64,000 nucleotides of DNA from a bacterium (lineage in GTDB: Bacteria > UBA8248), in NCBI GenBank assembly GCA_965261085.1, contig OZ253442.1, forward strand, positions 2,728,445-2,792,444, read 5' to 3'. The position numbers were made by a program, and so were the translations under genes. Of the stretch, positions 255 to 44,631 are shown in pieces (position 1 is the first letter of the stretch; each line of letters starts with the position of its first letter). Below the pieces are notes generated by a model. That model was not told the origin of the DNA. It made no database searches and was given only the letters and a program-made list of their open reading frames with translations.

Positions 255-1064
255 CTATTCGGCGATGAGTTCTGGAATGGGTTCCGGCTCTTCGTCGGGG
301 TTGCGCATGGCTTCCCAGAGGTAATGGCGCAGCGCCTGGAAGCGCTGGCTGCCCCGGAGTTCTTCCATATTCCTGCCTCGGCCGAATCCGGTTTCGAACT
401 GAAAGCGTATTCTCCCCGGCCTGGGCGTCATCACCAGGACGCGATCCCCGAGCAGAAGCGCCTCGTCGATGCTGTGGGTGATGAAGATCATCGCTTTGGG
501 CTCCACCTCGTTGATGCGCAGCAACTCCTCTTGCAGTGTTTCACGCGTCAGCGCATCGAGAGCGCCGAAAGGCTCGTCCATCAACAAAACGTCGGGCTGC
601 GCGGCGAGCGCCCTCGCCAGACCCGCTCTTTGCTGCATCCCGCCGGATAATTGAGAGGGGTAGTTTCCCTCAAAGCCCTCCAGACCCACCAGCTCCGTGT
701 AGTGGCTGACGAGGCTGTCGATTTCTCCCTTCTCCTTGCCCTGTATCCGTAGCGCGTAGCCGATGTTCTGATCCAGGCGCTTCCAGGGGAAAAGCCCAAA
801 ATTCTGAAAAACCATGGCCATCTCCGGCCTCGGACCAGTGACCACCTCTCCTTTGAAGGAAACCTCTCCCCTCTCGCAGAGAATGAGTCCGTTCACGATC
901 CGCAGAAGCGTCGTCTTCCCGCACCCGCTGGGACCAAGAATCGTCAGGATTTCCTGTGTCTTGACGTCGATGTCGATCTCATCGAGCACATGGAGGGAGC
1001 CGAACCATTTCCCGACGCCCTGAAGGCGCAGCGTTGGATTCGAGCCGTTGTCGGATGGGGACAT
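255..1064 (-). CDS. ABC transporter ATP-binding protein (nitrate/sulfonate/taurine SsuB/TauB-like)
   Basis: ORF 255..1148 (-). Walker A GPSGCGKTT, ABC signature LSGGMQQR, Walker B LLMDEPFGALD, H-loop ITHSIDEA. Start placed at ATG 1064 (MSPSDNG...). ATG 1100 or the track start 1148 are alternatives. Confidence 0.9.
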   Translation of the reverse strand: MSPSDNGSNPTLRLQGVGKWFGSLHVLDEIDIDVKTQEILTILGPSGCGKTTLLRIVNGLILCERGEVSFKGEVVTGPRPEMAMVFQNFGLFPWKRLDQNIGYALRIQGKEKGEIDSLVSHYTELVGLEGFEGNYPSQLSGGMQQRAGLARALAAQPDVLLMDEPFGALDALTRETLQEELLRINEVEPKAMIFITHSIDEALLLGDRVLVMTPRPGRIRFQFETGFGRGRNMEELRGSQRFQALRHYLWEAMRNPDEEPEPIPELIAE

Positions 1065-1268
1065 GGATAAAAGGATTCCTGTCGAGAAAAGCGGCTTCAT
1101 GCGCTTCGTTCGGTTGGCGAGATGATTCGCCGCGAGAATGAGGGCCACAGGTCAGACGTATCATGAAAAACGCGACGCTCGCTCACCACCCTGAAGCGTT
1201 TCAATAATTTTGCGAGATTAGCATCCTTTACCGGAGGCGGCAAATATGGGGTTTTGCTCTCGGTCTCC

Positions 1269-1661
1269 CTATTCCTCACCCACGACGGCAATGGCCTGTA
1301 TTTCGACCATCATTTCCGGTTTGGCGAAACCCGCCACCGTGATCAAGGCGCTGCCGGGATATCCATTCGGGAAATACTGCTTTCTGAGCTCGACGAAGCG
1401 ACCCCCGTACTGGACGTTGAGAGTGAACACCGTCATCGTCACGATGTCCTGGAGTTTCCCGCCCGCCCGCTCCAGGGTGCGCTCCATCTGGCGAAACGTG
1501 GCGTGCACCTGCGCGTCGAAATCCCCCGCCAGCACGTTCCCCTCATCATCGCGCCACGCCCCTACGCCGGCCATCCATATCTGCTCGCCTCCTCTCGTCT
1601 TCACCGCTGGCGAAAACGAGCGATCCTCCTGCCAGTCGCCCTTGAAATACTCTCGCGTCAT
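1269..1661 (-). CDS. RidA/YjgF/endoribonuclease L-PSP family protein
   Basis: 130-aa ORF with RidA-family length and layout (...DFDAQVHATFRQMERTLERAGGKLQDIVTMTVF...ALITVAGFAKPEMMVEIQAIAV). Confidence 0.8.
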   Translation of the reverse strand: MTREYFKGDWQEDRSFSPAVKTRGGEQIWMAGVGAWRDDEGNVLAGDFDAQVHATFRQMERTLERAGGKLQDIVTMTVFTLNVQYGGRFVELRKQYFPNGYPGSALITVAGFAKPEMMVEIQAIAVVGEE

Positions 1662-1679
1662 GTCAACTCCTTCTCCGGG

Positions 1680-2888
1680 TTATCGTGTTTCTATTTTTTT
1701 GCCTCTCAACTGCACCGATGTCGAAACGGCCAGCCAACTCATGATCGCAAAACAAAAATAGCTCGCATCCAGATTCACCTGCCCGGCGAGCCACCCACCC
1801 AACAAGGGGGCGAGAAAACTCAAGCCGTGGCAAGTGTAGATAAAACCGACGGATGAAGTGAGAATGTCTCTCTCCGAAAAATCCGCCGCCGCGGTGAGGA
1901 TAATCGGGCTCACGAACCCGACGACGCCGGTCAAGGCGGACAGAATATAAAACCCCGTTTGCCACTGCATGAACGGCAGGGCGAAAACGAAGACTCCCAG
2001 CAGCGTCATGGGCCAGAACAGGGCGGCCCGCGCCCCCCAGCGGTTATACAAGATTCCCATCAATGGTTTGGCAAACATGCCGAAACCGAAATGGAGCGAT
2101 ACGGCCACGCCGATTTGCGCCGTGTTCATCCCCAGCTTCGAGGTCGCCAGCAGGGGCAGAAAACCAATCATTCCCTTGGTGCACATGCTGCGTAAGGTGT
2201 AGGTCGCCGCCAGCCACACCGTATTTTTGTTCTCGACGACCCGCCTGATGATGGAGAAGACTTTCAGATCCGCCGCTTTTCCCGCTTCGCGGATGGAGCT
2301 ATTTTTCCCTACGCTGAACCGGGCGTTCACCAGAGGGAGGAGCGCAATGGCGGGAGCCGCGCAAGCGCCGATGGCCGCGCGCCATCCGACTACCGCCGCC
2401 AGCGCCGCCTGGGCCAGCGGGAGGATGCTGGTTCCGAGGTTGCCTCCCAGGCTGTGCCACGAAATGGCGAATGCGCGGTCGCGCTCGAAGCGATTCGCCG
2501 CCAGCGCCGTTCCGCACGGGTGGTAGACGGAATTTCCCGCCCCTGCCAGAAACGCCAGGGCGCACATCGGCAAGAACCGGCTCACCCACATCATCGCAAT
2601 GAAAGACGCAGCGGAAGCGCCCATACCCATCAGCAGGATTAGTTTTCTGGCGCCCGTATAATCCGCCAGTATGGAAAGGGGGTATTGAAAGATCATCTGC
2701 CCGAGACTGAAAGTGCTGAGCAGGAGTCCCACTTCGAAGGGCGAGAGTTCGAGATCGATGACGATGAGCGCGAGAACGGGAACCAGCATGTTGGAAAACC
2801 CATCGCTCAGCCCGTGGGTCATGCCGATGACGCTTAGATCAAAATAATCGACGAATCTCCAAACCGGTTTTTGCGAATGAGAGGTCAT
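1680..2888 (-). CDS. MFS transporter
   Basis: Hydrophobic multi-TM protein of about 400 aa with an MFS-like two-halves organisation. Start set at ATG 2888 (MTSHSQKPVWRF...), which overlaps the TAA stop of the upstream peptidase gene (TAATG). Confidence 0.75.
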   Translation of the reverse strand: MTSHSQKPVWRFVDYFDLSVIGMTHGLSDGFSNMLVPVLALIVIDLELSPFEVGLLLSTFSLGQMIFQYPLSILADYTGARKLILLMGMGASAASFIAMMWVSRFLPMCALAFLAGAGNSVYHPCGTALAANRFERDRAFAISWHSLGGNLGTSILPLAQAALAAVVGWRAAIGACAAPAIALLPLVNARFSVGKNSSIREAGKAADLKVFSIIRRVVENKNTVWLAATYTLRSMCTKGMIGFLPLLATSKLGMNTAQIGVAVSLHFGFGMFAKPLMGILYNRWGARAALFWPMTLLGVFVFALPFMQWQTGFYILSALTGVVGFVSPIILTAAADFSERDILTSSVGFIYTCHGLSFLAPLLGGWLAGQVNLDASYFCFAIMSWLAVSTSVQLRGKKIETR

Positions 2889-3844
2889 TACGATGCGGGA
2901 ATATCGCGCCAGGCGGGAATGATGCCTCCACCCTCGGCCGACATTACTGCGCGGCAAATCGCATGGCCGACGGCCGTCATGGCGGCAGCCCCGACGACGT
3001 CGAGAGCCACCTCTCGCTCCCCGCGGGAGAGTGCGAACACCATGTCTCCATCCACCGTCGTAAAAGAAGGACGGACCGTACGAATGAGCCCGTTCGTCGC
3101 CACCTGGGCGAGTTTGTGGGTTTCGGTTTTCGTCAAGGAGGCATTCGTCGCGACAGCTACGAGCGTCGTGTTCTCGGAAGTATTGGAGAATCCCTCGAAG
3201 GGTCTTCCGTGGATCCTCAAGTGCTCTTCCGTATTCACGATTCCTTGGTCAGGAGGCATCGCCCTCGGCCCTGCGAGGGGATTCCCCGTCTCAGGGTCAT
3301 AGATGCCGCCAAAGGCGTTCACCGCGGCAACCGCGCCCACGACGCCGCCCCCCGGCAGCGCAATGCTCGCCGTACCGACGCCGCCTTTCATGGCGCGCTC
3401 CTGGCCGAACAGTTTCCCTATCGTAGCGCCCGCGCCCGCACCCACGCTCCCCTGGGGGCCTTCGGCGTTCGAGGCCGCCTCGCACGCAGCGCGTCCCATG
3501 GCGGCGTCCGGACGGACTCGGCCATCACCGAAATGCAGGTCGAACAACACGCCCGCTGCGACCGTCGGTACGTTGAAGCGTCCGGTGGGGAACCCTCTTC
3601 CCTGCTCCTCCAGGAAAGCCATGACGCCGTCTGCCGAGGCCAAGCCGAATGCGCTTCCTCCCGTCAGGACGATCGCATCCACGCCTCCGACGAGGTGTTC
3701 GGCGCGCAGCGCGTCCATGCCGCGCGTGGCCGTCGCCGTGCCGCGCAACTCGCACGCCCCGACGGTTCCGGGCGGACAAAGCACCACGGAGACGCCCGTT
3801 TTGGCCCCATCATCGTGCGCGTGGCCGAGATAAAAGCCCGGCAC
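2888..3844 (-). CDS. P1/S58 family peptidase (DmpA-like L-aminopeptidase/D-esterase)
   Basis: 318-aa ORF: MPGFYLGHAHDDGAKTGVSVVLCP... and the ...ENTTLVAVATNASL... segment are characteristic of the DmpA/P1 peptidase family. Confidence 0.8.
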   Translation of the reverse strand: MPGFYLGHAHDDGAKTGVSVVLCPPGTVGACELRGTATATRGMDALRAEHLVGGVDAIVLTGGSAFGLASADGVMAFLEEQGRGFPTGRFNVPTVAAGVLFDLHFGDGRVRPDAAMGRAACEAASNAEGPQGSVGAGAGATIGKLFGQERAMKGGVGTASIALPGGGVVGAVAAVNAFGGIYDPETGNPLAGPRAMPPDQGIVNTEEHLRIHGRPFEGFSNTSENTTLVAVATNASLTKTETHKLAQVATNGLIRTVRPSFTTVDGDMVFALSRGEREVALDVVGAAAMTAVGHAICRAVMSAEGGGIIPAWRDIPAS

Positions 3845-3922
3845 GTCGGTTATGCAACCTTTGAGATCAGAAGGATTCAGAAGAAAGACTCCTCGTTTCC
3901 TGGCGCATCCACAGAGGCCGCT

Positions 3923-4579
3923 TCAGTCCGCGATTGGCAACTCGCCGGGTGCGCGTCCAGGCAATTCACCGGTCTCAAGGATGCTGTCGATGACGTATCT
4001 GTATTGTTCGGCCGGCACCGCGCCGACCATGACCGCGTGATCGTTCACGACTACGGAGGGGATGCCCGTTATCCCCAAATTCGTGGCCTCCATGTATTCC
4101 TTGACGGCTTTTTCCTTCAAACCCCCGTTTTCAATAGCGTCGCGGAACCTGTCCATGTCCAGGCCGCTTTCCTCCGCCACGTCACTCACCACCTCCGGGT
4201 CAGAGATGTTTCTGTTTTTCGTGAAAAAGGCGGCCAGAAGATTGTCGTGAAATTTTTCCCACTCTTCGGGTCCCTGGAATCTCGCCGCCAGCCCCGCTTC
4301 CGCAGACGGCATCGAGCAGTTCGGAAATTCCGCCTCGCTCTCCCATAAGGTGAAATCACCGGAATCGGGCTGCGAATTCGCATTCGTCCAGTGGTTTCTG
4401 CGGTAATCGTTGAACACCGCCGTGGGGTCCGGCTCTGGCCTCAGCATGAAAACCCGGTACTGAATATCTACTTTACCGCCATATTCCTCTTTTACCTTCT
4501 TCAGGCGCACGGCCGAGTTAAAGCACCAGGGTCACAAAAAATCGCTGTACACCGTCAATCGTACAGGGGCGTTATCCAT
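3923..4579 (-). CDS. DsbA/FrnE-like thiol-disulfide oxidoreductase, predicted selenoprotein (in-frame TGA at 4534..4532 read as Sec; motif U-P-W-C)
   Basis: The ORF track begins at GTG 4510. The same frame upstream reads ATG(4579) DNAPVRLTVYSDFL-TGA-PWCFNSAVRLKKVKEEYGG... This restores the DsbA beta1 strand plus a CxxC motif with TGA at the first Cys. A GGAG sits about 10 nt upstream of ATG 4579. The rest of the protein (..GITGIPSVVVNDHAVMVGAVPAEQY..) is a typical FrnE/DsbA fold. Confidence 0.75.
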
Positions 4580-4640
4580 TGTCTTCTCTCTCCTCTCGTT
4601 CCATCGCCATAGTCTCGAACCCCAACGATAAACACCAAAA

Positions 4641-5528
4641 CTATATCTTCATATGCGCCATGTGCACCTTCACCTTTTCGCCGATGCCCGCGCCCAGGAA
4701 TTGCGCGGCGCTTCCTTCGGGCACGAATATCTCGAGCCGCGTCCAACTGTTGAACAGCGCCCCGAGATCGCCCGTCTTCACCGCCTGGTAGTATTCGCTC
4801 ACCCCGTTGATGACATGATCGCCGATTTCGATGACCGGCAGGTGCGCGGCGTCGTCTTCTCCGTATTCGAAACGCCAGAAAGTCGTGGTGTCGATGTTCG
4901 TCACCAGGTTCCCGTATTGATCGACGCAGATGACCTCGCCGGTGATGGTGTCGGCATCCTCGAATTCCACCGCGGGAAAATCGAAGCGCACCGGGTCGGT
5001 GATGACGGAGCCGAAATCCTCCGGGGGAACCCCGTAGGAAAGATGTCCCGCAACGGGCGCGAAAATATCCCTGCCGTGGAAGGTGGAACTCACCTCGTTC
5101 AGGAAAAACGCATCTTCTTCGAGCTCTCTGGTCCACATATAGAGCGGGTCGTCGTATACGCAGGAGAACAGGCCGTTGTCCGGACCCACGAAATAGTAGT
5201 TTTCGGTGGCGGCTATGACTCCCCTGCGGCTGCTTCCCACACCCGGGTCCACGACCGCCACATGAATGGTCCCGCGCGGGAAATAATGCGCCGAAGAACC
5301 CAGAATCAACGATGCGGCCTTTACGTCGTAAGGCCTGATGGCGTGGGTGATATCCACGATCCGGGCTACCGGATTTATCGCGAGGACAACGCCCTTCATC
5401 ACCCCCGCATAGTGTTCATCGCTCCCGAAATCCGTGAGAAGAGTGACCAGCGGCTGAGCACCGCTTTCCTCTTCGAAATCGGGGGCGCCCTCGTGGAAAG
5501 GATTCGGACGCGATTGATCGTCCGTCAT
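4641..5528 (-). CDS. S-adenosyl-L-methionine hydroxide adenosyltransferase family protein (DUF62, fluorinase/chlorinase superfamily)
   Basis: The N-terminal LVTLLTDFGSDEHYAGVMKGVVLAINP motif and the ~290-aa length are typical. ATG 5528 overlaps the TGA stop of the upstream mtaB-like gene (ATGA). Confidence 0.8.
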   Translation of the reverse strand: MTDDQSRPNPFHEGAPDFEEESGAQPLVTLLTDFGSDEHYAGVMKGVVLAINPVARIVDITHAIRPYDVKAASLILGSSAHYFPRGTIHVAVVDPGVGSSRRGVIAATENYYFVGPDNGLFSCVYDDPLYMWTRELEEDAFFLNEVSSTFHGRDIFAPVAGHLSYGVPPEDFGSVITDPVRFDFPAVEFEDADTITGEVICVDQYGNLVTNIDTTTFWRFEYGEDDAAHLPVIEIGDHVINGVSEYYQAVKTGDLGALFNSWTRLEIFVPEGSAAQFLGAGIGEKVKVHMAHMKI

Positions 5529-6937
5529 GACGCAAGCTCTCCCCATAAGGCATCCGACCTTGCGGCGATGCGGGAAAATCCATTTTTTTCGGGCAAGGGC
5601 GTCAGGCGCACCGGAACAGTGCGGCCTATCCATTCATCAGGACCGGAGGCCAACACGCGGATGTAATTGTCCGACAAGCCGGTGAGAAAACCGTCTTCTA
5701 CGCGGCGGCTCTCGAACAACACGTCCGTTTCTCTCCCCGTTTGGGAGGAGACGAACGCCGTCCATTTCCTGCGCCCCAACTCCCGTAAGGCGCGCGCGCG
5801 GTTTTTCTGCTCGGCTCTTGAAATTTGCCCAGACATTTCGATGGCCGCCGTTCCCTCACGCGGCGAATACGGAAAAACGTGCAGATACGCCAGAGGCGAT
5901 TCCCGCACCCATTCCATGGTTCGCTCGAACGCCTCTTTGCTCTCGCCGGGAAAACCGACAATAAAATCTCCGCCGAGACACGCCCCTTCTATTTTCTTCG
6001 CGATTTCATCGAAACGGCTCGCGCAGCGCGCAGCGGTGTAATTGCGGTTCATCGCCCTCAGTGTTTCATCGTCTCCGCTCTGGACGGGTATGTGGAAATG
6101 GCGGCAGACGTAACTCCCCTCGCTCAACGCGCCCGAACCGTACGCCTCGCCCGCCACGACGCGGATGAGTTCGCGCGTGAATTCCCCCGGTTCCACGGAG
6201 GAGAGCCTGAGGCGGAAATTTCTTTTCATCTCCAGCAATCGGCTCACCAGACGGCTCAGTGTGCTGCGCGGCATCATGTCCCTGCCGTATGCGCCGAGGT
6301 GAATTCCGGTGAGCACCAACTCTTCGTGTCCGCCCGCAAGAAGGGTATCGGCGTGCTCCACGCATGAGGCCACATCCAGAGAGCGGCTCGCTCCACGCGC
6401 GATGGTCGTCGCGCAAAAAGAGCAGGAAAAGTTGCAGCCGTCCTGCACCTTGAGGTACGCCCGCGTCCGGCTGCCGAACTGAGGCAGGACGACGCTCTCG
6501 ATATCAAGGCTCTCCTCGATTGGAGAAACCCGCATCTCGGGCGTCTCATTCCTCAGCAACGGTTTAGCCAGTTCATCGGGGAGCCTGAGCTTTTCCCTGT
6601 TCCCGAGCAGGAGATCCGCTTCCGGGATCAGCATTTTCTCCGCGTTCGCCTGGGCGGAGCATCCTGCGATGACGACCCGGGCGGTTGCGCCGCCCATCCG
6701 CCGCGCTCTGCGCGCCAACCGCCTGCCCTCGCGGTCGGCTTCCGCCGTGACCGTGCAACTGTTGACGACGTAGACGTCCGCCTCGGCGTCAAACGGAACG
6801 AGCTCGAACCCGGCCCCGGCGGAGAGATGCTTCATGGCTTCGCCCTCGGCGTGGTTGAGCTTACACCCCAGATTCGCCAGGGCGAGCCGAAGGGGTTTCA
6901 CGCTTGCGCTCTTCATGGCTTCGCTCGTCTCGTTCAT
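5525..6937 (-). CDS. mtaB: tRNA (N6-threonylcarbamoyladenosine) methylthiotransferase MtaB-like radical SAM enzyme
   Basis: N-terminal UPF0004-type LANLGCKLNHAEGEAM, radical-SAM cluster motif CNFSCSFC (CxxxCxxC), and a C-terminal TRAM-like region. Start placed at ATG 6937 (MNETSEAMK...). The track ORF extends to 7123. Confidence 0.8.
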   Translation of the reverse strand: MNETSEAMKSASVKPLRLALANLGCKLNHAEGEAMKHLSAGAGFELVPFDAEADVYVVNSCTVTAEADREGRRLARRARRMGGATARVVIAGCSAQANAEKMLIPEADLLLGNREKLRLPDELAKPLLRNETPEMRVSPIEESLDIESVVLPQFGSRTRAYLKVQDGCNFSCSFCATTIARGASRSLDVASCVEHADTLLAGGHEELVLTGIHLGAYGRDMMPRSTLSRLVSRLLEMKRNFRLRLSSVEPGEFTRELIRVVAGEAYGSGALSEGSYVCRHFHIPVQSGDDETLRAMNRNYTAARCASRFDEIAKKIEGACLGGDFIVGFPGESKEAFERTMEWVRESPLAYLHVFPYSPREGTAAIEMSGQISRAEQKNRARALRELGRRKWTAFVSSQTGRETDVLFESRRVEDGFLTGLSDNYIRVLASGPDEWIGRTVPVRLTPLPEKNGFSRIAARSDALWGELAS

Positions 6938-7235
6938 TCGGGCTACCTTCAAATGTTGAGAAATGCTACTTTTACAGCGAATCTTACGCTTTGCGCAAAT
7001 TGGCCCGCAAGGGCTGTTTCGCTTGACTAGGAAGAGTGGCAGTTGATAGGGTAACGCCGCCCGTATGAGAGTGAGAACTACTTGTCCGGCCAGGTCACCA
7101 GGGGATGCTGGCCGACACGTCACTCCGAGCGTTTTCCTTGATCCCCTTCTGTCGGGTATGATTCGGCATCGTTTTCAGTTTTCATGACAGGTGTGGTTAT
7201 ATTCTATTTCAGATGATTGAGGAGAGATTCCGTCT

Positions 7236-8102
7236 ATGCGTGGTTTTGAATTCGTGGCGCCGACGACCTTATCGGCGACCTTAAAGGCGGCAAAAGGCAG
7301 AAACACAAAATACATTGCCGGAGGCACCAATTTCCTGCCCGACCTCAGGCATCAGCACGACGGGCCGGCGAAAGTCGTCATCGACCTGATGAGAGTCTCC
7401 GCGCTGCGGGGGATTTCCTCGGCCAAGGGCGAAATAAAGCTGGGCGCACTGGCGACGATGACGGATTTACTGACCGACAAGACCATCCTTAAGGAAGCGC
7501 CCGTTCTGGTGGCGATGGCGGAGAAATTCGCAGGTCCGATCATCCGAAACCGCGCTTCGGTGGCCGGCAACATCATCGACGGGGGGCCTGCGGCCGACGC
7601 CGTTCTTCCCCTGCTCGCCCTGAAAGCGAAGGTGAGACTCGCCAGCGAAAAAGGAAGAAGAACCGTCGGCCTGGATAAATTCCTCACCGGATATCGCCAG
7701 ACGGCCATCAGGCAGGATGAATTGATCACCGCCGTGACTTTCCCCTCCCCCGGCAGGAACCACAAGTGGGGCTATTACAAACTCGCCCGCCGCAACGCCA
7801 TGGCCATCACCGTGGTGGGCGTGGCGGTCGTGTTGAAGGTGAGGCGCAACAAGGTGGAAGAAGCGGGCATTTCGCTGGGTTCCGTTACGGCGACTCCGAT
7901 CCGCTGCTATGAGGCGGAGAAAATTCTCGAAGGAAACGTGGTCGACCTCGAGTTGGCTCAAAAGGCCGCGGAGGCATGCGCCGCCGTTGCGACGCCGATT
8001 GACGACATTCGCGCATCGGCGGAATACCGCAAGCTGATGTGCGAGGTCTTGCCCCGCCGTCTCATTTGCCAGGCCCTGGATATTTCACAGGACAACGAAT
8101 AG
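7236..8102 (+). CDS. Xanthine dehydrogenase family FAD-binding subunit (CoxM/CutM-like)
   Basis: 288 aa. Typical FAD-binding molybdopterin-dehydrogenase medium subunit (..YIAGGTNFLPDL.., ..RNRASVAGNI.., C-terminal ..DIRASAEYR..). Confidence 0.85.
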   Translation: MRGFEFVAPTTLSATLKAAKGRNTKYIAGGTNFLPDLRHQHDGPAKVVIDLMRVSALRGISSAKGEIKLGALATMTDLLTDKTILKEAPVLVAMAEKFAGPIIRNRASVAGNIIDGGPAADAVLPLLALKAKVRLASEKGRRTVGLDKFLTGYRQTAIRQDELITAVTFPSPGRNHKWGYYKLARRNAMAITVVGVAVVLKVRRNKVEEAGISLGSVTATPIRCYEAEKILEGNVVDLELAQKAAEACAAVATPIDDIRASAEYRKLMCEVLPRRLICQALDISQDNE

Positions 8103-8146
8103 AAGACTCCATCGTCTCTTAGAATTTTATCGGAGAATCCTTGAAG

Positions 8147-8701
8147 ATGGCTACAGCGAGCAAATCAAAACGAACCGCGAAGAAAAAATCGAGCGCACCC
8201 GCATACGTGCCCCCCAAGAAGCTGCCCATTTCCTTCACGGTGAACGGCCAGGAAGTCAACACCGAAGCGCCCGCGCACACCACTTTGCTGTATCTGTTGC
8301 GTGACTTGGGTTTCACCGAAGTGAAAAACGGTTGCGAGGCGGGGGATTGCGGCGCCTGCACGATTCTTCTGGATGGTCTGGCGATGAACGCTTGCTGCGC
8401 GCTCGGCGTCCAGGCGGAAGGGCGTGAAATCACCACGGTCAAAGGCATCGGAACGGTGGGCAACCTCCACCCGATCCAGGAAAAATTCATCGAGCACGGC
8501 GCCATTCAGTGCGGTTTCTGTACGCCTGGAATGATAGTCGCCACGAAGGAATTGCTCGACAACACCCCGAACCCCAGCCGACAGGAAATCAAGGCCGGCA
8601 TCGCGGGCAATCTTTGCCGCTGCACCGGCTATGTGAAGATTATCGACGCTATCGAGGCGGCGGCTGAAGAACTTTCCTCGAAGAAAGGAAAAGGGAAATG
8701 A
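8147..8701 (+). CDS. (2Fe-2S)-binding small subunit (CoxS/CutS-like) with a Lys-rich N-terminal extension
   Basis: Cys motifs GCEAGDCGAC, CGFCTPGMI and NLCRCTGY. GGAGAA lies about 10 nt upstream of ATG 8147. The N-terminus MATASKSKRTAKKKSSAPAYVPPKK precedes the ferredoxin fold. Confidence 0.9.
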   Translation: MATASKSKRTAKKKSSAPAYVPPKKLPISFTVNGQEVNTEAPAHTTLLYLLRDLGFTEVKNGCEAGDCGACTILLDGLAMNACCALGVQAEGREITTVKGIGTVGNLHPIQEKFIEHGAIQCGFCTPGMIVATKELLDNTPNPSRQEIKAGIAGNLCRCTGYVKIIDAIEAAAEELSSKKGKGK

Positions 8702-9648
8702 GTGTGACTGCCTCATCAAACTCAACCAAAGGGGAAAAAAGTTCGTCATACGGATTTGCGAGCGTCGTAGACGTTCAGGAGTCGTTCAGAAAACTCGACT
8801 ACATCTCCGACAAAACGCTGGCGACCACCCTCTTCCTGGCCACGAAACTGGAAAAACCCCTTTTCCTGGAAGGCGAAGCCGGGGTCGGGAAAACCGAACT
8901 CGCCAAGGTGCTCGCCAGCGCGATGGATACCGAGCTCATCCGTCTGCAATGCTACGAGGGTCTCGACGCGAGTTCGGCTCTCTACGAGTGGAACTATGCG
9001 AAACAACTCCTCCACATCAAGATGGAAGAAGGCAGGGACTCGGACGCGAAGTCGATTGAAAAAGATATCTTCAGCGAGCAGTACCTGATAGAACGTCCCC
9101 TGCTTCGTGCGCTTTTGCGCTCGAAAGAAAAGCCGGTGGTCTTGCTCATTGATGAAATCGACCGCTCGGACGAGGAGTTTGAAGCGTTCTTGCTGGAAAT
9201 TCTCTCCGATTTCCAGATTACGATTCCTGAGATGGGGACCATCAAGGCGGTCAGCAAACCCCTGGTGGTGCTCACCAGTAACCGGACGCGTGAAATTCAC
9301 GACGCCCTTAAACGACGCTGCCTTTACCTGTGGGTCGACTACCCCTCTTTTGAGAAAGAAGTGGAGATTATTACGACCAAGGTGCCCGGGATTACCGATC
9401 GCCTGGCGGAGCAAATCGCCCGCTTTATGACGCAGGCGAGGCAGATGGATTTCTACAAACGCCCCGGCGTGGCCGAATCCCTTGATTGGGCGCAAGCGCT
9501 TCTCGCTTTGCATCGGAATGAGCTGGACGTGGAAGCCGTGCGAGAGACCATCGGCTGCATCCTGAAATACCAGGACGACATCAAGCGCATACAGAACGAC
9601 GGCCTCGACAGCATGGTAGCGACGGCGCAACTCTCGCCCGACGCCTGA
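8698..9648 (+). CDS. MoxR-family AAA+ ATPase (CoxD-like)
   Basis: Walker A GEAGVGKT and Walker B VVLLIDEIDR. ATGA overlap with the small-subunit stop. Confidence 0.85.
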   Translation: MSVTASSNSTKGEKSSSYGFASVVDVQESFRKLDYISDKTLATTLFLATKLEKPLFLEGEAGVGKTELAKVLASAMDTELIRLQCYEGLDASSALYEWNYAKQLLHIKMEEGRDSDAKSIEKDIFSEQYLIERPLLRALLRSKEKPVVLLIDEIDRSDEEFEAFLLEILSDFQITIPEMGTIKAVSKPLVVLTSNRTREIHDALKRRCLYLWVDYPSFEKEVEIITTKVPGITDRLAEQIARFMTQARQMDFYKRPGVAESLDWAQALLALHRNELDVEAVRETIGCILKYQDDIKRIQNDGLDSMVATAQLSPDA

Positions 9649-9661
9649 TTCGAGCGACTCC

Positions 9662-10927
9662 ATGGCAACCACCATCCGTCCCATCGTGCAAGGCACTCTG
9701 CCCAAGCGCCGGATTCGCGTAAAGGGCAGAGGCCTGAAGGGCGAGATGATCGGCTTTTGCCGAATTCTCAGGCGCGCGGGTCTCAAGATTACCTCCGGCC
9801 GCATCATCGACGTGTTCCGCAGTTTCGACTCGCTCGAGGCCACGAATCTCGACAACATCTATATCGCCAGCAAGTCGAATCTCATCTCAAGCCAGGATGA
9901 GAGCATGATATTCGACGCCGTGTTCCGGCAATACTGGTTCGATGAGGAAGGAAATCCTTACTCGGGCGACGAATCGGTACAGGTTGACACGCAATTCGAG
10001 GAAGAAGGCGAAGGACAGGCCGACGAGGGGGGCGGAACTTCGGAGGAAGGAGAATCGGACGCCGAAGGAGAGGGGCAGGAAAACCCGGGACTTCCCTCTG
10101 AAGATGACGTGGAGAGCGCCGCCGAACCCGGTGAGCAGGGAGATGACGACGAGGGAGTGCCCTCTTACAGTCCCGCCGAAGTCATATCGGACAAGGATTT
10201 TTCCGCGCTGAACATGGACCAGGTCGCCGAACTCAGGCGCCTCATTGCAAAACTCGTCCCCAAGCTCGCCACCAAAATCAGCCGCCGCAAACGGCCCGAC
10301 ATGCGCTCGCCTGAAATCGACATGAGGCGAAGCGTAACGAGAAGCGTTCGCTCGGGCGGCGAGGTGCTGAAACTTTTCCGCCGGAGAAGAAAGATACAAA
10401 AAACCCAGATCGTGCTGATCTGCGACGTATCTGGGTCGATGGACAGCTACAGTCAGTTCCTGATTCAGTTCCTCTACAGCCTGCAAAACGAGATTAAATC
10501 GCTGCGCACCTTCGTATTCAGCACGCGTCTTTCGGACGCAACGCCGTATCTGCGCCACAAGGACGTCAACACCGCCCTCAAGCGCCTCTCCATGGAGGTG
10601 CACGACTGGAGCGGCGGCACGCAGATCGGCAACTGTCTCAAAACCTTCAACTATGAATACGGCAGAACCATCCTCAACAGCCGCACCATTGTTATTATCA
10701 TATCGGACGGCTGGGATCGGGGCGATACGGATACGCTGGGGGAGCAAATGACTCGCCTCAAGAAAAACTGCCACAAACTCTTCTGGCTCAATCCTCTGCT
10801 GGGTAGCCCCGGCTACCGCCCGATTGACAGGGGAATGAGAACGGCCCTGCCCTATTGCGACGAGTTCCTGGCCGCCCACAACCTCGACAGCCTGGTGGAC
10901 ATGACGAACAGGATCGCGCGCATATAA
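9662..10927 (+). CDS. VWA domain protein (CoxE-like) with a long acidic insert
   Basis: MIDAS-type LICDVSGSM and a C-terminal VWA fold (..IIISDGWDRGD..). It sits directly after the MoxR/CoxD-like gene, as in cox/xdh accessory pairs. Confidence 0.85.
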   Translation: MATTIRPIVQGTLPKRRIRVKGRGLKGEMIGFCRILRRAGLKITSGRIIDVFRSFDSLEATNLDNIYIASKSNLISSQDESMIFDAVFRQYWFDEEGNPYSGDESVQVDTQFEEEGEGQADEGGGTSEEGESDAEGEGQENPGLPSEDDVESAAEPGEQGDDDEGVPSYSPAEVISDKDFSALNMDQVAELRRLIAKLVPKLATKISRRKRPDMRSPEIDMRRSVTRSVRSGGEVLKLFRRRRKIQKTQIVLICDVSGSMDSYSQFLIQFLYSLQNEIKSLRTFVFSTRLSDATPYLRHKDVNTALKRLSMEVHDWSGGTQIGNCLKTFNYEYGRTILNSRTIVIIISDGWDRGDTDTLGEQMTRLKKNCHKLFWLNPLLGSPGYRPIDRGMRTALPYCDEFLAAHNLDSLVDMTNRIARI

Positions 10928-27819: not shown

Positions 27820-29130
27820 TCAGTCCGATTCATCCGGCGGCGGGCCGGGCGGGTTCTCATCGCTTTCGGGCTCCACTCCGAAGAGTTTCTGGACGGATTC
27901 GACCGAAATGCCCTCCACGTCTTCTTCCGCCATCTGGCGCAGGACGGCGAAGGGATGGTGGAGAAGCTTGTTGACCAGCGCCTTCGTCATGGCGTCAAGC
28001 GCATCACGACCGTCCCCGCCCAATTCGGGTAGGCGAAGAATGGTTTTTTCGACTTCCGTCCGGCGCATCGACTCCGCAAAGAAACGTATGGCCGCAAAGG
28101 TGTACCTGAGATCCTCCGCCTTCTGGCGGGCGAGATAGGTCTGCACCTCGCTTTCCAGGATCGCGCGCGCGTCGCGGGCCACCTCCTCGCGATCCCGTAG
28201 GTTGTCCGCCGCTACGGACTGCAAGTCATCCACATCGTAGAGATATGCGTCTTCCAGTTCGTTCACGTCGGGCGCGACGTTTCTCGGCACGGCGATGTCG
28301 ATGAGAAAAACCGGCGCGTCGCGGCGGCGCTCGAGCGCAGCGGCCACGGTCGGCTTATCCAGAATGAAACCCTGCGAGGCCGTCGAGGTGATGACGACGT
28401 CGGCGTCGATGAGCGCTTGCTCGAGATTATCGAAACTCACGGCGCGCCCCTTGAGTTTTGCGGCCAACTCCTGGGCGCGCGCGAGCGTCCTGTTCGCCAC
28501 CTGGAGGGTGTCCGCCCCGCTCGCCTTGAGATGCCTCGCCGCCGCCTCGCCCATCTCGCCCGCGCCCAGCAAGAGCACGTTCTTCCCCGCAAGGGAGCCG
28601 AAAATTCTTTTGGCCAAATCCACGGCGACGGAGCTCACCGACACCGGCGACTCGCCTATCGGCGTCTGCTCGCGAATCTTTTTCGCCACGCGAAACGCGC
28701 GGGAGAAGAGGTTCGTGAGCGCCTTTCCGGCGTGGCCCGAGGCCTGGGCGACCCGGTAGGCTTCTTTCACCTGGCCCAAAATCTGCGGCTCACCCACCAC
28801 CATGGAATCGAGGCTCGACGCCACGGTGAACAGATGCCGCGTGGCTTCGGCTTCGCGGTGAACGTAGAGATGGGCGTTCAGCTCCTCTCGGCCGATATCG
28901 CGTGATTCCAGGAAAAAGCGATGAATCGCATCGAGTCCCTGTTCCAGATCATCCACTGCGCTGTAGACTTCCACCCTGTTGCACGTCGAGAGGATGAGGC
29001 GCTCATCGAGCTCGTGGTAGCCGGCCAGCCTGTCGAGCCACTCGCTCATGTTCCCTTCGGGGAAATAGAGGCGCTCTCGAATGCTGAGCGGCGTGTTGTG
29101 GTGGCTCACGCCGGCGAGAATGATGGACAT
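27820..29130 (-). CDS. hemA: Glutamyl-tRNA reductase
   Basis: ..LSTCNRVEVY.. (catalytic Cys), ..LLLGAGEMGE.. (NADPH site), 436 aa. Confidence 0.95.
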   Translation of the reverse strand: MSIILAGVSHHNTPLSIRERLYFPEGNMSEWLDRLAGYHELDERLILSTCNRVEVYSAVDDLEQGLDAIHRFFLESRDIGREELNAHLYVHREAEATRHLFTVASSLDSMVVGEPQILGQVKEAYRVAQASGHAGKALTNLFSRAFRVAKKIREQTPIGESPVSVSSVAVDLAKRIFGSLAGKNVLLLGAGEMGEAAARHLKASGADTLQVANRTLARAQELAAKLKGRAVSFDNLEQALIDADVVITSTASQGFILDKPTVAAALERRRDAPVFLIDIAVPRNVAPDVNELEDAYLYDVDDLQSVAADNLRDREEVARDARAILESEVQTYLARQKAEDLRYTFAAIRFFAESMRRTEVEKTILRLPELGGDGRDALDAMTKALVNKLLHHPFAVLRQMAEEDVEGISVESVQKLFGVEPESDENPPGPPPDESD

Positions 29131-29145
29131 ATTCTTCCGCGCCCC

Positions 29146-29913
29146 CTAGAAATGGACGACAAGCGCGAGGAGCGCGGCGAAGAAGGCCACCATCGAGAAA
29201 ACGGCGGAGCGCTTTCCCTTCCAGCTTCTGGTAAGCCGACAGAAGAGCAGGAGCCCATATGCGCCCCAGATGAGTATCAGCGGCCAGGTGCGCACCGGAT
29301 CGAGGCTCCAGTAGGCGCCGTGGCGCGATTTCGCCCACATCGAGCCGAGCAGCAGGCTCGCCGTCAGGAACGCGAAGCCGAAATAGAGAATCTTGTGGTT
29401 CAGGTCGTCCAGAATGTCGAGCGAGGGCAGACGATGCAGCCAGGCGCTGGGTCTTCTGGATTTGAGTTGTTGGGATTGAACGAGATACATCAGCGCCGAG
29501 GCGAAGAGGAGAAAAAACGCGCCCGAGCTCAGCAGCGCGAGCACGGCGTGGCCTTTCAGTAAATAACCCTGCACGGCGCTCGAACCCGCACCCCACACGC
29601 CGGGAAAGGCCGATGCGTATCCCTCGAGAATGAACGCCGCAGGCACGGCGAAACCACCGAGGGCGATATCGCGGTAGCGGGCGTAGACGATCAGGTACAT
29701 CAGGATGATCACCCACGCCATGCCGCTCAGCCACGGCCCCCAGCCCTCGGGCGTGCCGGAGGCGAAGCTCACCCCCAGCATGAGGGTATGAAGCGCAAAT
29801 CCCGCGAGCAGTGAGCCGACTCCGTAGACGACGCCCACGGACCTGCCCGTGAAGAGCAGATACAGGTGCGTGAGCGCCGCAACGAGATAGCAGCCGATCA
29901 GGATGGCGACCAC
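29146..29913 (-). CDS. Cytochrome c assembly CcsA-like membrane protein (HemX-type, first gene of the hem operon)
   Basis: Multi-TM protein with a Trp-rich segment (..SMWAKSRHGAYWSLDPVRTWPLILIW..). Start set at GTG 29913, preceded by GAGAGGA. The track ORF extends to 30048. Confidence 0.7.
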   Translation of the reverse strand: MVAILIGCYLVAALTHLYLLFTGRSVGVVYGVGSLLAGFALHTLMLGVSFASGTPEGWGPWLSGMAWVIILMYLIVYARYRDIALGGFAVPAAFILEGYASAFPGVWGAGSSAVQGYLLKGHAVLALLSSGAFFLLFASALMYLVQSQQLKSRRPSAWLHRLPSLDILDDLNHKILYFGFAFLTASLLLGSMWAKSRHGAYWSLDPVRTWPLILIWGAYGLLLFCRLTRSWKGKRSAVFSMVAFFAALLALVVHF

Positions 29914-30081
29914 GGGATTTTTCCTCTCAGCGCAAGGCCGCGCCTCGCGATTGTGAAAACAGCCTTTTCCATCTCCGTCCACGGAAAAGGGCGAACAAAG
30001 CCATTTAGACCACCATTTCGGGCATTTTGCAATAATCCGGTGCGCCACCGGCGCCCGGGCTCAGATTTTCTACTCGCCAAG

Positions 30082-40037: not shown

Positions 40038-40904
40038 TCAGGAAGCGCCCAACGCCTTCAGGATGGTTCGCCTGATCAAGACGGGCGTCACCTGTTTCCT
40101 GTAGTCGCCGCTCGCGCGGATATCGGTCAGAGGCTCCAGGTCATCGAGGGTTTCCGCGAGCACGGCGTCGATGTTCTCCTGGTTGAGTTCCTTGCCTCGC
40201 AGACCCTCTTCCGCCGCCGTGAGGCGTCTGAACACGGCCTCCACTCCCCCTAAGCCGATTCGCACCTCTTTGGCCGTCTTGCCGTCTTCTTCGGTGAGCA
40301 CCGCGGTGGAGACGGAAACGCAGGGCTTGTCCTCTTTGGAGCGCGTGGTGAAGCGCGTGTAGGCCGTCCTGAATCCATCGGGCAGTGGGTCGACCTCGAT
40401 CGAACACAGCAACTCATCCTCATCCAACGCGCATTCGTAATATCCCGTCCAGAACTCCGTCGCGGGAATCACCCGCTCTGAGCCGTCCGCCTTTTTGGTG
40501 TTCATGCGGGCCTCAAGGGCCAGAAAAGCGCCTGGAGGATCCGATGCCGGTTCCGCAAAGCACAAGTTGCCGCCCACCGTCCCCTGGTTTCGGATGCGAA
40601 TCGTGGCCACGTTGTGGAAGATTTCCGCGAGCAGCGGGAAGCGTTCCTGAACGAGCGGGGAGAGTTCGATCTTGCGGTGCACCGTCTTCGCCCCGATGCG
40701 GACGCCGCCGTTGTCGGTTCCTTCGATGAAATCCAGATCACTCGCCCCCGCAATGTCTATCAACACCTCGGGTTCGTACACCCGCGATTTCATGAGAATC
40801 GAGAGGGCGACGCCGCCGGCGAACACTTTCCCGTCCTCGCCGTGCTCCTTCATGGCGGCGAGCGTTTCCTCCGCGCTGTTCGCGGATAGATGCCGAAAAG
40901 ACAT
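40038..40904 (-). CDS. Xanthine dehydrogenase family FAD-binding subunit (second copy)
   Basis: 288 aa with ..VFAGGVALSILM.., ..IRNQGTVGGNL.., ..DIRASGDYR... Confidence 0.85.
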   Translation of the reverse strand: MSFRHLSANSAEETLAAMKEHGEDGKVFAGGVALSILMKSRVYEPEVLIDIAGASDLDFIEGTDNGGVRIGAKTVHRKIELSPLVQERFPLLAEIFHNVATIRIRNQGTVGGNLCFAEPASDPPGAFLALEARMNTKKADGSERVIPATEFWTGYYECALDEDELLCSIEVDPLPDGFRTAYTRFTTRSKEDKPCVSVSTAVLTEEDGKTAKEVRIGLGGVEAVFRRLTAAEEGLRGKELNQENIDAVLAETLDDLEPLTDIRASGDYRKQVTPVLIRRTILKALGAS

Positions 40905-40923
40905 TTTTTATCCCCTCTCCTCG

Positions 40924-43209
40924 CTATTCACCATTTTTCTCGTTCAGGGCAGCCAACACTTTTTCCGGCGTTATCGGCAGCGACGTGATTCGTACGCCCA
41001 CGGCGTCATAGATAGCGTTCCCTATCGCCGCCGACGTTCCCAACTGCGCCATCTCGCCCAGCCCTTTCGCCCCATAGGGTCCCGAGGGATTTTCCGTCTC
41101 GATAAGCACGGCTTCGAGTTCGGGTAAATCCTGGGTCGTCGGCAGCTTGTAGTCGAGCCAGTTCGCGTTCACCGGCTGTCCGTCTTCGACTTCGAAATCC
41201 TCCATCATGGCGTAGCCCACGCCCATCAGCACGCCGCCGTCCAGTTGGCCCAGCGCGCCGGCTGGGTTCACGATGGTTCCGACGTCGTTCGTGCTGATGA
41301 CCCGCAAGACCTCGAACGCGCCGGTTTCGGTGTCCACTTCCACCTCCGCCACCTTGGCGCCGTAGGCATAGGCCGCGGACCAGTTTCCATAACCCGTCAC
41401 GGGGTCTGGCGTCTCGCTCGGCGAGTCATAAGAAGACGCCGTGTAGACGGCCTCGCTGCCCTCTTTTTCGTATATCTTCATGTAGGCTTCGCTGTGAGTC
41501 ACCTGCCGCTCGGGAGAACTGGTGACGAAAATTTTGCCCTTTCGAGCGTCCAGGTCGTTCGGGTCGCACTCGAGCAGTTCCGCCGCGCCCTTGAAGAGCA
41601 TGTTCTTCGCCTGGACCGCCGCCAGGCGCGTAGCCTCGCCGTCGATGGTCGTCGTACGGCTTCCCCGCACGCCCCACCCGTAGGGGTTCACCGCAGTATC
41701 CCCGTTGATGATACGAACATCCTCCACGCGTACACCCAACGCTTCGGCGCAAATCTGCGCGAGCGTGGTGTCCGAGCCGTTGCCCATCTCGATCGTGCCC
41801 GAGAGCAACTGCACGGTGCCGTCCTTGTTCATCTTGATGAACGCGCCCGCCGTCTCCGGTCCCATTGCGCGCGCGCCGGTGAAATGAACCGCCGCGGCCA
41901 GCCCGAAGCCGCGCTTTTTCCCGTTGCTGCTCGGTTGTTCCTGACGCCAGGGCACGCGCTTGACCGCTTCCTGTACGCACTCGGAAACACCGCAACTCGT
42001 GATCTTGGCCCCGATGATGGTGGTGTCGCCCTTCCTCACGAAGTTCTTGATGCGAAACTCCGCCGGGTCCATGCCGATTTCATCGGCGTGTTTCTCCATC
42101 GCGAGTTCAGAACCAAAGGAATAGCCGCCGTTGCCTATGCCGCGCATCGCGCCGCCGGGCGGCACGTTCGTGCAGACGACGTCGGCATGGTGGCGATAGG
42201 CCTTGTAGTTGTAGATGCTCCCGCCCATGTGCGCCGTGATGCCGCCGACCGCCGGGCCGTAATCGGAATAGCCGCCGTTTTCAACGACCATCCGGGTGTC
42301 GCGCGCCAGGAGCATGCCGTCCTTGTCCGTGGCGATGCGCCAGACGTGGAACTGCTTCGTCCGGTGGGTGCCGAGGAGGAACTCCTCTTCGCGGTCATAG
42401 TAGAATTTCACGGGAAGACCCAGCTTTTTCGCCGCGATGATCGAGAGGAAATCTATGTTGAACTTACTCGTCGCCTTTCCGCCGAACCCCCCGCCCACGT
42501 AGTTCGTGATCACGCGAATCTGGGCCTCTGGAATCTTGAGGAGCTTGGAGAAATACTGGCTCGAAAGACTCGGGCATTGCGAGGAGTTGTAGACCGTCAC
42601 GTCGCCCTTTTGCGACCATTCGGCGATGGAGACGTGCATCTCGAAAGAACCGTGCATCTGGCGCGAGGAGGACGTGGCCAACTCGCTCACGTGGTGAGCC
42701 TCGTCGAACATGCGGTCCACGTCGCCGAATTCCATGTGCTTGGTGAAGGCGATGTTATTCGGGTATCTGTCATGGATGATGGGAGCGCCCTCTTGCATCG
42801 CTTCTTTCGGATCGAAGACGGCGGGAAGATCCTCGTAGTCGACGTCGATCAGATCGAGCGCCTCTTTCGCGATGTCTTCTGAAATCGCCACGACGGCGGC
42901 CACCGAGTCGCCCACGTGTCGCACCTTGTCCGAGGCGAGGGGACGCTGATCGTAGCAAACGGGTACGACGCCCCACTCCACTTCCTCGGGGATGTCCTTG
43001 GACGTCATCACGAGTTTGACGCCGGGTAGCCTCTCGGCGCGGCTGGTGTCGATGTTCTTGATTCGCGCGTGCGGAAGTGGACTTCCCAGCAGTTTTCCGT
43101 GAAGCATTTTGGGCAACTGGAGGTCCAGGGTGTACATGGCCCGGCCCGTCACCTTTTCCGGCCCATCGACGCGAGGCACGCTTTTTCCGACGTATGAGAG
43201 TTCAGCCAT
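40924..43209 (-). CDS. Xanthine dehydrogenase/aldehyde oxidase family molybdopterin-binding large subunit
   Basis: 761 aa from ATG 43209 (GGAGG 6 nt upstream). a/b-hammerhead N-terminus (..PRVDGPEKVTGRAMY..), ..GGGFGGK.., ..GGAMRGIG.., ..GAKGLGE... It does not carry the CODH-type AYRCSFR/AYRGAGR loop. Confidence 0.9.
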   Translation of the reverse strand: MAELSYVGKSVPRVDGPEKVTGRAMYTLDLQLPKMLHGKLLGSPLPHARIKNIDTSRAERLPGVKLVMTSKDIPEEVEWGVVPVCYDQRPLASDKVRHVGDSVAAVVAISEDIAKEALDLIDVDYEDLPAVFDPKEAMQEGAPIIHDRYPNNIAFTKHMEFGDVDRMFDEAHHVSELATSSSRQMHGSFEMHVSIAEWSQKGDVTVYNSSQCPSLSSQYFSKLLKIPEAQIRVITNYVGGGFGGKATSKFNIDFLSIIAAKKLGLPVKFYYDREEEFLLGTHRTKQFHVWRIATDKDGMLLARDTRMVVENGGYSDYGPAVGGITAHMGGSIYNYKAYRHHADVVCTNVPPGGAMRGIGNGGYSFGSELAMEKHADEIGMDPAEFRIKNFVRKGDTTIIGAKITSCGVSECVQEAVKRVPWRQEQPSSNGKKRGFGLAAAVHFTGARAMGPETAGAFIKMNKDGTVQLLSGTIEMGNGSDTTLAQICAEALGVRVEDVRIINGDTAVNPYGWGVRGSRTTTIDGEATRLAAVQAKNMLFKGAAELLECDPNDLDARKGKIFVTSSPERQVTHSEAYMKIYEKEGSEAVYTASSYDSPSETPDPVTGYGNWSAAYAYGAKVAEVEVDTETGAFEVLRVISTNDVGTIVNPAGALGQLDGGVLMGVGYAMMEDFEVEDGQPVNANWLDYKLPTTQDLPELEAVLIETENPSGPYGAKGLGEMAQLGTSAAIGNAIYDAVGVRITSLPITPEKVLAALNEKNGE

Positions 43210-43503
43210 CACAACCTCCACTCGTTTGCGGCATCAAAGGGCATGCCGCAGGGCGCTTTTATGTTCTTGTCCTTTGCTTGATAATTGGATAGGTATGGCA
43301 ATTCGATCACATCGCAATCTCCCGGGAGTCGACAGAACACGATGTCACCTTCTTTGCATTCTATGAGCCTATCATAACAACTCCAGGGGCAAAACAAAAC
43401 CCCCCAAAAATCGACGACCGAGGCCCTTAAAACCCCTTCTGGGAACATCCCTACCGACTTTCTCGCCAAAAAAGTTATAAGCTTAGGAAGACCTAAAACG
43501 CCT

Positions 43504-44415: not shown

Positions 44416-44631
44416 AATCTAAATTATCGATCCAAACTTCGATCATTAAACATATATTACACTACACACACAGAATGAATTCTAAAATTTATACATGAGG
44501 CCATGTTCGCCACTTTGAGAAATCCTCAGTTCCGCTTTCTCCCCTTCGGCTTGTGGTGTATCATCCGCCGTATTGAACCCGAAAAATGAACTTTCGGATC
44601 ACCCCATAGACACCAAAACTGGAGTAACGCA

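Follow-up and report, generated by a model that had tools for sequence, protein, structure and literature searches.

A DsbA/FrnE-like oxidoreductase gene with a predicted selenocysteine codon in its redox motif, annotated as a truncated protein

A gene on the minus strand of the DNA analysed here (a stretch of 64,000 nucleotides, hereafter the window) carries an in-frame TGA where the CxxC motif of a DsbA-like oxidoreductase would have its first Cys, which raises the question of whether this codon ends the reading frame or is read as selenocysteine (Sec). The mechanical list of open reading frames (ORFs) has the gene only as 3923..4510, a protein of 195 amino acids with a GTG start. An earlier note on the same DNA had instead read the frame through the TGA up to an ATG and had predicted a U-P-W-C selenoprotein. 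On direct reading of the minus strand, the frame, the motif and their coordinates were all present as it had described them: ATG 4579..4577 is followed by MDNAPVRLTVYSDFL, TGA 4534..4532, PWCFNSAVRLKK..., and the stop TGA 3925..3923, and the longer residue string right after TGA 4534..4532 in this frame is PWCFNSAVRLKKVKEEYGG... The Shine-Dalgarno sequence that the note had seen before ATG 4579 was also found, as GGAG at 4593..4590 with a spacer of 10 nt. The gene and its 5' part comprise the features below.

3923..4579, minus strand: coding sequence of the predicted DsbA/FrnE-like selenoprotein (218 codons, one of them the Sec-UGA) and its stop TGA 3925..3923 (from translation, Pfam and tblastn)
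4590..4593, minus strand: Shine-Dalgarno-like GGAG, 10-nt spacer to ATG 4579 (from direct reading)
4535..4579, minus strand: N-terminal 15 codons, beta-strand 1 of the thioredoxin fold, absent from the standard gene call
4532..4534, minus strand: in-frame UGA, predicted Sec codon, first position of the U-P-W-C redox motif (motif 4534..4523)

When the TGA was read as Cys, the product matched the Pfam family DSBA (PF01323) with an E value of 1.2e-22, residues 8-197 being aligned with positions 2-190 of the 191-position profile. Since this match spans residues 8-197, the 15 codons upstream of the TGA belong to the domain and not to a leader. The nearest solved structure by sequence, in a search of the family profile against the PDB, was FrnE of Deinococcus radiodurans (E = 1.4e-14). 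The structure of a Cys homologue (P0045), which is 37% identical to the window protein and has the same YSDFLCPWCFN motif, was modelled with AlphaFold (mean pLDDT, 89.4; pTM, 0.88). The model has a strand at residues 5-11 and, after it, a helix at residues 16-35 whose N-terminus holds CPWC, a placement which is that of a classic thioredoxin-fold active site. Foldseek matched the model to FrnE, YjbH, and DsbM at a probability of 1.00 with TM values of 0.72-0.79, and kappa-class GST/HCCA isomerases were grouped alongside these three (TM, 0.71-0.79 overall). Pfam, the profile search, and the P0045 model agree on a DsbA/FrnE-type thioredoxin fold with a helical insertion. The earlier assignment of the gene to DsbA/FrnE, with the TGA on the first Cys of CxxC, is borne out by the nearly full-length DSBA match and by the Cys homologues, which read YSDFLCPWCFN. 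Judged from the same model, a product started at GTG 4510 would begin only after strand 1 and the first redox residue, and its helix 1 would be incomplete at the N-terminal end. The window protein is presumably cytoplasmic, since beta-strand 1 from residue 6 leaves no room for a signal peptide.

The best matches among solved structures, in sequence as well as in fold, were FrnE (D. radiodurans; PDB 5cnw and others) and DsbM, a cytosolic disulfide reductase of Pseudomonas aeruginosa (PDB 5hfg). Like the predicted window protein, these two cytoplasmic proteins have a DsbA-like thioredoxin fold that contains a helical insertion, and their CxxC is N-terminal; unlike it, they have Cys and not Sec, and the modelled homologue P0045 is only ca. 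20-24% identical to them. FrnE has what we take to be a C-terminal Cys pair (the title of PDB entry 5cp1 reads 'C239S mutant'), whereas the tail of the window protein, ETGELPGRAPGELPIAD, is Cys-free, and C19 and C88 are its only Cys residues besides the Sec position. The periplasmic DsbA of Escherichia coli shares the Pfam domain and the fold class with the window protein, but it has CPHC in place of UPWC and, unlike the window protein, a signal peptide; the FrnE/YjbH/DsbM group was matched far better.

A search of 5.8 billion public proteins found 51 homologous clusters, and 44 of these, mostly the closest ones, were called without the N-terminal segment; most of the short clusters had 186-197 residues and covered 83-89% of the query. 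Together with the start at GTG 4510 in the ORF list, this confirms that gene callers truncate the gene, as had been anticipated. Farther from the query, the homologues P0045, P0047, and P0048 have their full length and Cys at this position, and they read YSDFLCPWCFN, compared to YSDFL-UGA-PWCFN in the window. A scan with one genome per species gave 80 loci, and in L001-L031 the tblastn alignments extended across the TGA and covered residues 1-218. The codon at the Sec column was TGA in 65 of the 80 species-level loci and TGT or TGC in the other 15, which settles a check that the earlier note had named, whether homologues carry Cys or TGA at this column. Its argument that a TGA placed exactly on the catalytic Cys is unlikely by chance gains greatly, because the recurrence of TGA at the same alignment column in 65/80 genomes is far beyond chance. 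The TGA forms occur in metagenome-assembled genomes (MAGs) labelled Nitrospinota, Tectomicrobia, Acidimicrobiia, Rubrobacteraceae, Myxococcota, Binatia, Pseudomonadales, and 'Deltaproteobacteria'. As a guess from their names, several of the closest MAGs come from sponge metagenomes.

The codons upstream of the TGA vary synonymously across the loci, while the encoded residues are kept. P, V, and L use four codons each, R and T use three, and the Leu preceding the TGA is coded by UUG, CUG, CUC, or CUU. Such conservation of residues over changing codons is typical of a segment translated under purifying selection, and tblastn and the codon analysis show that the protein sequence is conserved before as well as after the UGA. 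The earlier note had named two findings that would tell against its reading, namely a segment 4535..4579 not conserved at the protein level in relatives and a family that begins near V(4510) without CxxC. Neither was encountered: the residues of the segment are kept in 65 genomes with synonymous variation, and the Cys forms are continuous through that point.

The UGA is followed by two overlapping candidates for the SECIS element, the hairpin that would direct Sec insertion. The first is a small hairpin detected by comparison among the Sec forms, and the second is the stem pointed out in the earlier note.

4501..4516, minus strand: candidate SECIS hairpin UCGGC[CGUGC]GCC(U)GA, apical loop 4511..4507, bulged U 4503
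4504..4527, minus strand: stem GGUGC 4527..4523 / GCGCC 4508..4504, alignment columns 11-15 with 30-34

The loop of the hairpin 4516..4501 starts 20 nt past the UGA, with its G-U at +25/+26 from the U of UGA. We evaluated this hairpin in an ungapped alignment (A2) of 54 distinct Sec-form sequences, with 15 Cys forms as the comparison set, in the 7-pair register 4518..4500 (columns 20-26 with 32-38, 5-nt loop). Pairing was seen in 72% of the cells in the 54 Sec forms vs 26% in the 15 Cys forms, the latter value being equal to the shuffle expectation for these columns. Double changes were found in 47 cells, and none of 500 shuffles reached the observed value, a comparison in which relatedness among the sequences is not fully corrected for. 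The register used was the best among the slid controls in the Sec forms. Compensatory pairs included G-C in 37 sequences and A-U in 8, U-G in 23 and G-C in 22, and C-G in 19 and U-A in 11. The loop is CGUGC in most Sec-form sequences, and the G-U within it is invariant, as in a SECIS stem-loop, on a stem that is weak in the window; the Acidimicrobiia version is a perfect 7-bp stem, UCGGGAC[CGUGC]GUCUCGA. The CGUGC loop is also shared by Sec forms in the loci L033-L078 (e.g. L037, L053, L056, L052, and L071), which are labelled as MAGs of Acidimicrobiia, Rubrobacteraceae, Myxococcota, Binatia, and Pseudomonadales.

The codon usage of the hairpin was evaluated within the window's own clade (32 sequences, 64-95% amino-acid identity). 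The normalised synonymous entropy of its codons UCG GCC GUG CGC CUG was 0.015 as compared to a gene mean of 0.554, the lowest of any 5-codon stretch in the gene; each of these codons is 4- or 6-fold degenerate, yet near-invariant. The gene has only seven codon columns without any synonymous variation, and four of them fall in this stretch. All five frozen third positions are explained by the hairpin 4516..4501 as paired or loop bases, whereas the stem 4527..4523/4508..4504 explains only two.

In E. coli fdhF, the SECIS is a hairpin within the coding sequence shortly past the UGA; its apical loop has a G-U at +23/+24, and its stem has a bulged U. The hairpin 4516..4501 resembles it in its location within the coding sequence, its loop G-U (+25/+26 here), and its bulged U. 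It differs from the fdhF element in its shorter and weaker stem (5 bp, -3.6 kcal/mol), in the bulged U being on the 3' side, and in its loop, which is CGUGC and not GGUC.

Searches that use the window sequence by itself gave little. At gathering thresholds, Rfam had no match in the whole window, and a search of the local region with E up to 10 returned chance-level matches to twister-P1, snoRNAs, and cobalamin, with no SECIS family among them. Single-sequence folding downstream of the UGA was no better than that of shuffled sequences (z = 0.04), and minimum free energies of the 30-nt segment did not separate Sec and Cys forms, so that thermodynamics alone is uninformative for the SECIS. In the window, the hairpin 4516..4501 has an energy of -3.6 kcal/mol, and the predicted minimum-free-energy fold is a different one; the same hairpin has -8.7 to -14.5 kcal/mol in other clades.

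It is conceivable, though unlikely, that the gene encodes a selenoprotein whose SECIS is the stem 4527..4523/4508..4504 or another fold rather than the hairpin 4516..4501. The two structures overlap, so that they cannot form at once, and the stem has several points in its favour: it is the RNAalifold consensus of the Sec-form alignment, it is paired in 95% of the cells in the Sec forms, and it is the more stable of the two in the window (-7.0 vs -3.6 kcal/mol). It is, however, also paired in 83% of the cells in the Cys forms, with no covariation above controls, and for these two reasons it was rejected as a Sec-specific element. Since its arms are Trp-Cys and Val-Arg codons, the stem is largely a by-product of the protein sequence and probably not the SECIS. 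Besides, it leaves the frozen third positions of UCG, GCC, and CUG unexplained, and, with a loop of 14 nt, it would have the conserved G-U at the 3' end of that loop. What the earlier note said of the SECIS thus stands in part: the stem it described exists, but it is not Sec-specific and is probably not the SECIS, and the note's view that SECIS support is poor gives way to the comparative support for the hairpin 4516..4501. This small hairpin is the likely SECIS, as judged from the alignment.

The earlier note had also pointed to a second gene in the window with the same Cys-to-TGA pattern, at 45394..46230. This gene proved to have the in-frame TGA, two Rhodanese domains, the Sec/Cys pattern among homologues, and a strong hairpin.

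45394..46230, plus strand: two-domain rhodanese-related sulfurtransferase with two Pfam Rhodanese domains, predicted Sec-UGA 46096..46098, motif U-Q-T-G
46109..46125, plus strand: 7-bp hairpin ACCGUGC[GGC]GCACGGU of the rhodanese gene, +14 to +30 from the TGA, -10.4 kcal/mol

The in-frame TGA lies in the context AY*QTGYR on the active-site Cys. The close orthologues are all called at 234 amino acids, and the Cys forms have 277-280. One TGA-form DsbA-like gene (L003) is on the OZ244713.1 chromosome (3,917,699 bp), and a truncated rhodanese orthologue is on a contig of 3,917,699 bp, which has the length of that chromosome and so places both genes on it. A GC3-filtered, non-exhaustive scan of the window for further read-through ORFs yielded only the rhodanese gene as an additional candidate; the same filter dropped the DsbA-like gene itself, presumably via its short upstream segment. 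Two predicted selenoprotein genes within 64 kb are in keeping with an organism rich in selenoproteins.

The genes for Sec synthesis and insertion were searched for in the window and its relatives. ARAGORN found no tRNA genes in the 64-kb window and no tRNA-Sec in 60 flanking loci. None of the approximately 55 Pfam-annotated ORFs of the window was selA, selB, or selD, and tblastn with approximate E. coli SelD and SelA queries gave no match in the window and the 80 loci, a weak negative in view of these queries and of loci that cover gene flanks only. A relative with a syntenic locus has been catalogued: the MAG FO_M_Nitrospinota_01, the source of locus L027, has 54 selenoprotein genes in BSepDB, whose pipeline requires Sec-pathway genes, and this MAG of the GTDB phylum UBA8248 is among the ten most selenoprotein-rich bacteria in that database (PMC13326102). 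Since none of the machinery lies within the window, we infer the presence of SelA, SelB, SelD, and tRNA-Sec in the organism from the rhodanese selenoprotein gene and from this relative with 54 such genes.

The synteny consists of a gene order of CoxM (divergent), a MiaB-like radical-SAM methylthiotransferase, a SAM hydroxide adenosyltransferase, the DsbA-like gene (Sec), a peptidase S58, and an MFS transporter. It is shared by the window (255..8102) and the loci L001-L032 including L027, down to approximately 50-70% amino-acid identity, which suggests a conserved operon. After this order, RidA and an ABC transporter come next in the loci L081-L083. Elsewhere in the window, a heme cluster at 25005..30048 (minus strand) has hemA (glutamyl-tRNA reductase), hemC, hemD, and hemB beside a cytochrome c assembly gene and looks like an ordinary housekeeping context. 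A CO-dehydrogenase/xanthine-dehydrogenase-type set at 7236..10927 (plus strand) comprises an FAD subunit, a 2Fe-2S subunit, a MoxR-type AAA ATPase, and a CoxE-like VWA protein, and a second set of this type at 40038..43221 (minus strand) comprises an FAD subunit and a molybdopterin large subunit. A low-GC island at approximately 43250..44600 (GC 0.39-0.48, compared to 0.59 for the window) holds one ORF, 43504..44415 (minus strand), which encodes 303 amino acids with several CxxC pairs and has no Pfam match; this gene may have been horizontally acquired.

If the TGA were a true stop, the product would be the 195 residues from GTG 4510, or the gene would be a pseudogene, with the upstream 15 codons as an untranslated leader. 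All public gene calls use the GTG-start model, and TGA is an ordinary stop in the window: among the window ORFs tallied, nearly all of them Pfam-supported, it provides 20 of 52 stops. Against this, the short product would be missing its first beta-strand, the leading residue of the redox motif, and the beginning of helix 1; in 65 genomes of several phyla, the codons upstream of the TGA change synonymously and preserve the protein sequence; the Cys homologues are unbroken at the TGA position; and a pseudogene would not retain the same TGA and an intact flanking frame across phyla. Termination at this codon is, therefore, extremely improbable. Nor is the genetic code reassigned, because TGA ends 20/52 of the tallied ORFs; a code with UGA as Trp or Gly was ruled out by these stops and by the Cys of homologues at this column. 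The UGA might also be read through without selenium, by near-cognate Trp-tRNA or Cys-tRNA or by Cys on tRNA-Sec, which would give a full-length protein that is no selenoprotein. The absence of Sec machinery from the window is in line with such read-through. We consider it very unlikely all the same, since homologues have nothing but Cys opposite the UGA, the TGA forms have a conserved hairpin of their own at the spacing expected for a SelB-binding element, the rhodanese gene in the window is arranged alike, and the syntenic relative is catalogued with 54 selenoprotein genes (PMC13326102).

Considering these observations together, we put at about 90% the probability that the product of the gene 4579..3923 (minus strand) is a cytoplasmic thiol-disulfide oxidoreductase of 218 residues, DsbA/FrnE-like and with Sec as the N-terminal active-site residue (U-P-W-C), decoded via SelB and a hairpin; this reading is drawn from sequence comparison. 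Sec insertion at UGA 4534..4532 was accordingly hypothesised to proceed as described below. SelB, an elongation factor, would bring Sec-tRNA(Sec) to the UGA 4534..4532, which would then be read as Sec. SelB would be recruited by the mRNA hairpin 4516..4501 within the coding sequence, 16-19 nt past the UGA, whose apical loop CGUGC would present the G-U. The resulting enzyme may cycle between the selenol/thiol and selenenylsulfide forms, thereby reducing or isomerising disulfides in cytoplasmic substrates.

Selenoproteins of both kinds have been described before. In 2005, a study of the Sargasso Sea added 15 selenoprotein families, among them a 'DsbA-like protein' (COG2761, UxxC, nine sequences), and a 'Rhodanese-related sulfurtransferase' came from the same paper (PMC1088965). 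The remark in the earlier note that the family is probably not unprecedented was, thus, correct. DsbA-like selenoproteins were then found in the genomes of Anaeromyxobacter, Desulfovibrio, and Desulfotomaculum in 2006 (PMC1794560), and 'DsbA-like protein form 1, PF01323, UxxC' appears in a 2026 review, as do rhodanese forms with UxxG (PMC13188914). The DsbA-like selenoprotein family is like the window gene in its Pfam family, in Sec being first in UxxC, in its widespread Cys homologues, and in a SECIS-type hairpin just past the UGA. Its carriers are also alike, the 2006 survey having the myxobacterium Anaeromyxobacter (PMC1794560) and the present set having Myxococcota MAGs. In the subfamily sampled here, as distinct from the published family, the Sec form is predominant (65/80) and the loop CGUGC is kept across phyla. 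The window gene agrees with the DsbA-like UxxC selenoprotein family in every sequence-level feature that defines it. It is presumably 'form 1' or a sister subfamily, a placement that comes from family, motif, and COG namesake (published representatives, AACY01178397 and NIP15863.1).

These results suggest that the DsbA-like gene is very probably a genuine selenoprotein gene that is annotated everywhere as a truncated protein. The DsbA-like UxxC family has been known since 2005 and the lineage is already catalogued as selenoprotein-rich, so that the gene opens no new question. Its value lies in annotation: the gene and nearly all of its public orthologues are called as 194-196 residues without the redox centre, and because of these truncated calls, redox and selenium inferences for this uncultured lineage (MAGs labelled Nitrospinota) miss the gene. 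A wider reading, which we regard as doubtful, is that the FrnE-like subfamily is predominantly a selenoprotein subfamily (65/80, in at least five phylum-level groups), mis-annotated in nearly all records, and has one minimal cross-phylum CGUGC SECIS that shapes x-A/T-V-R-L. If it is predominantly a Sec subfamily, it may represent a 'form' of its own with too few entries in selenoprotein catalogues; if the minimal SECIS is indeed shared across phyla, it would offer a compact natural SECIS for studies of SelB recognition across phyla. The small cross-phylum hairpin is a modest bonus, which may be used to probe the minimal requirements of a bacterial SECIS.
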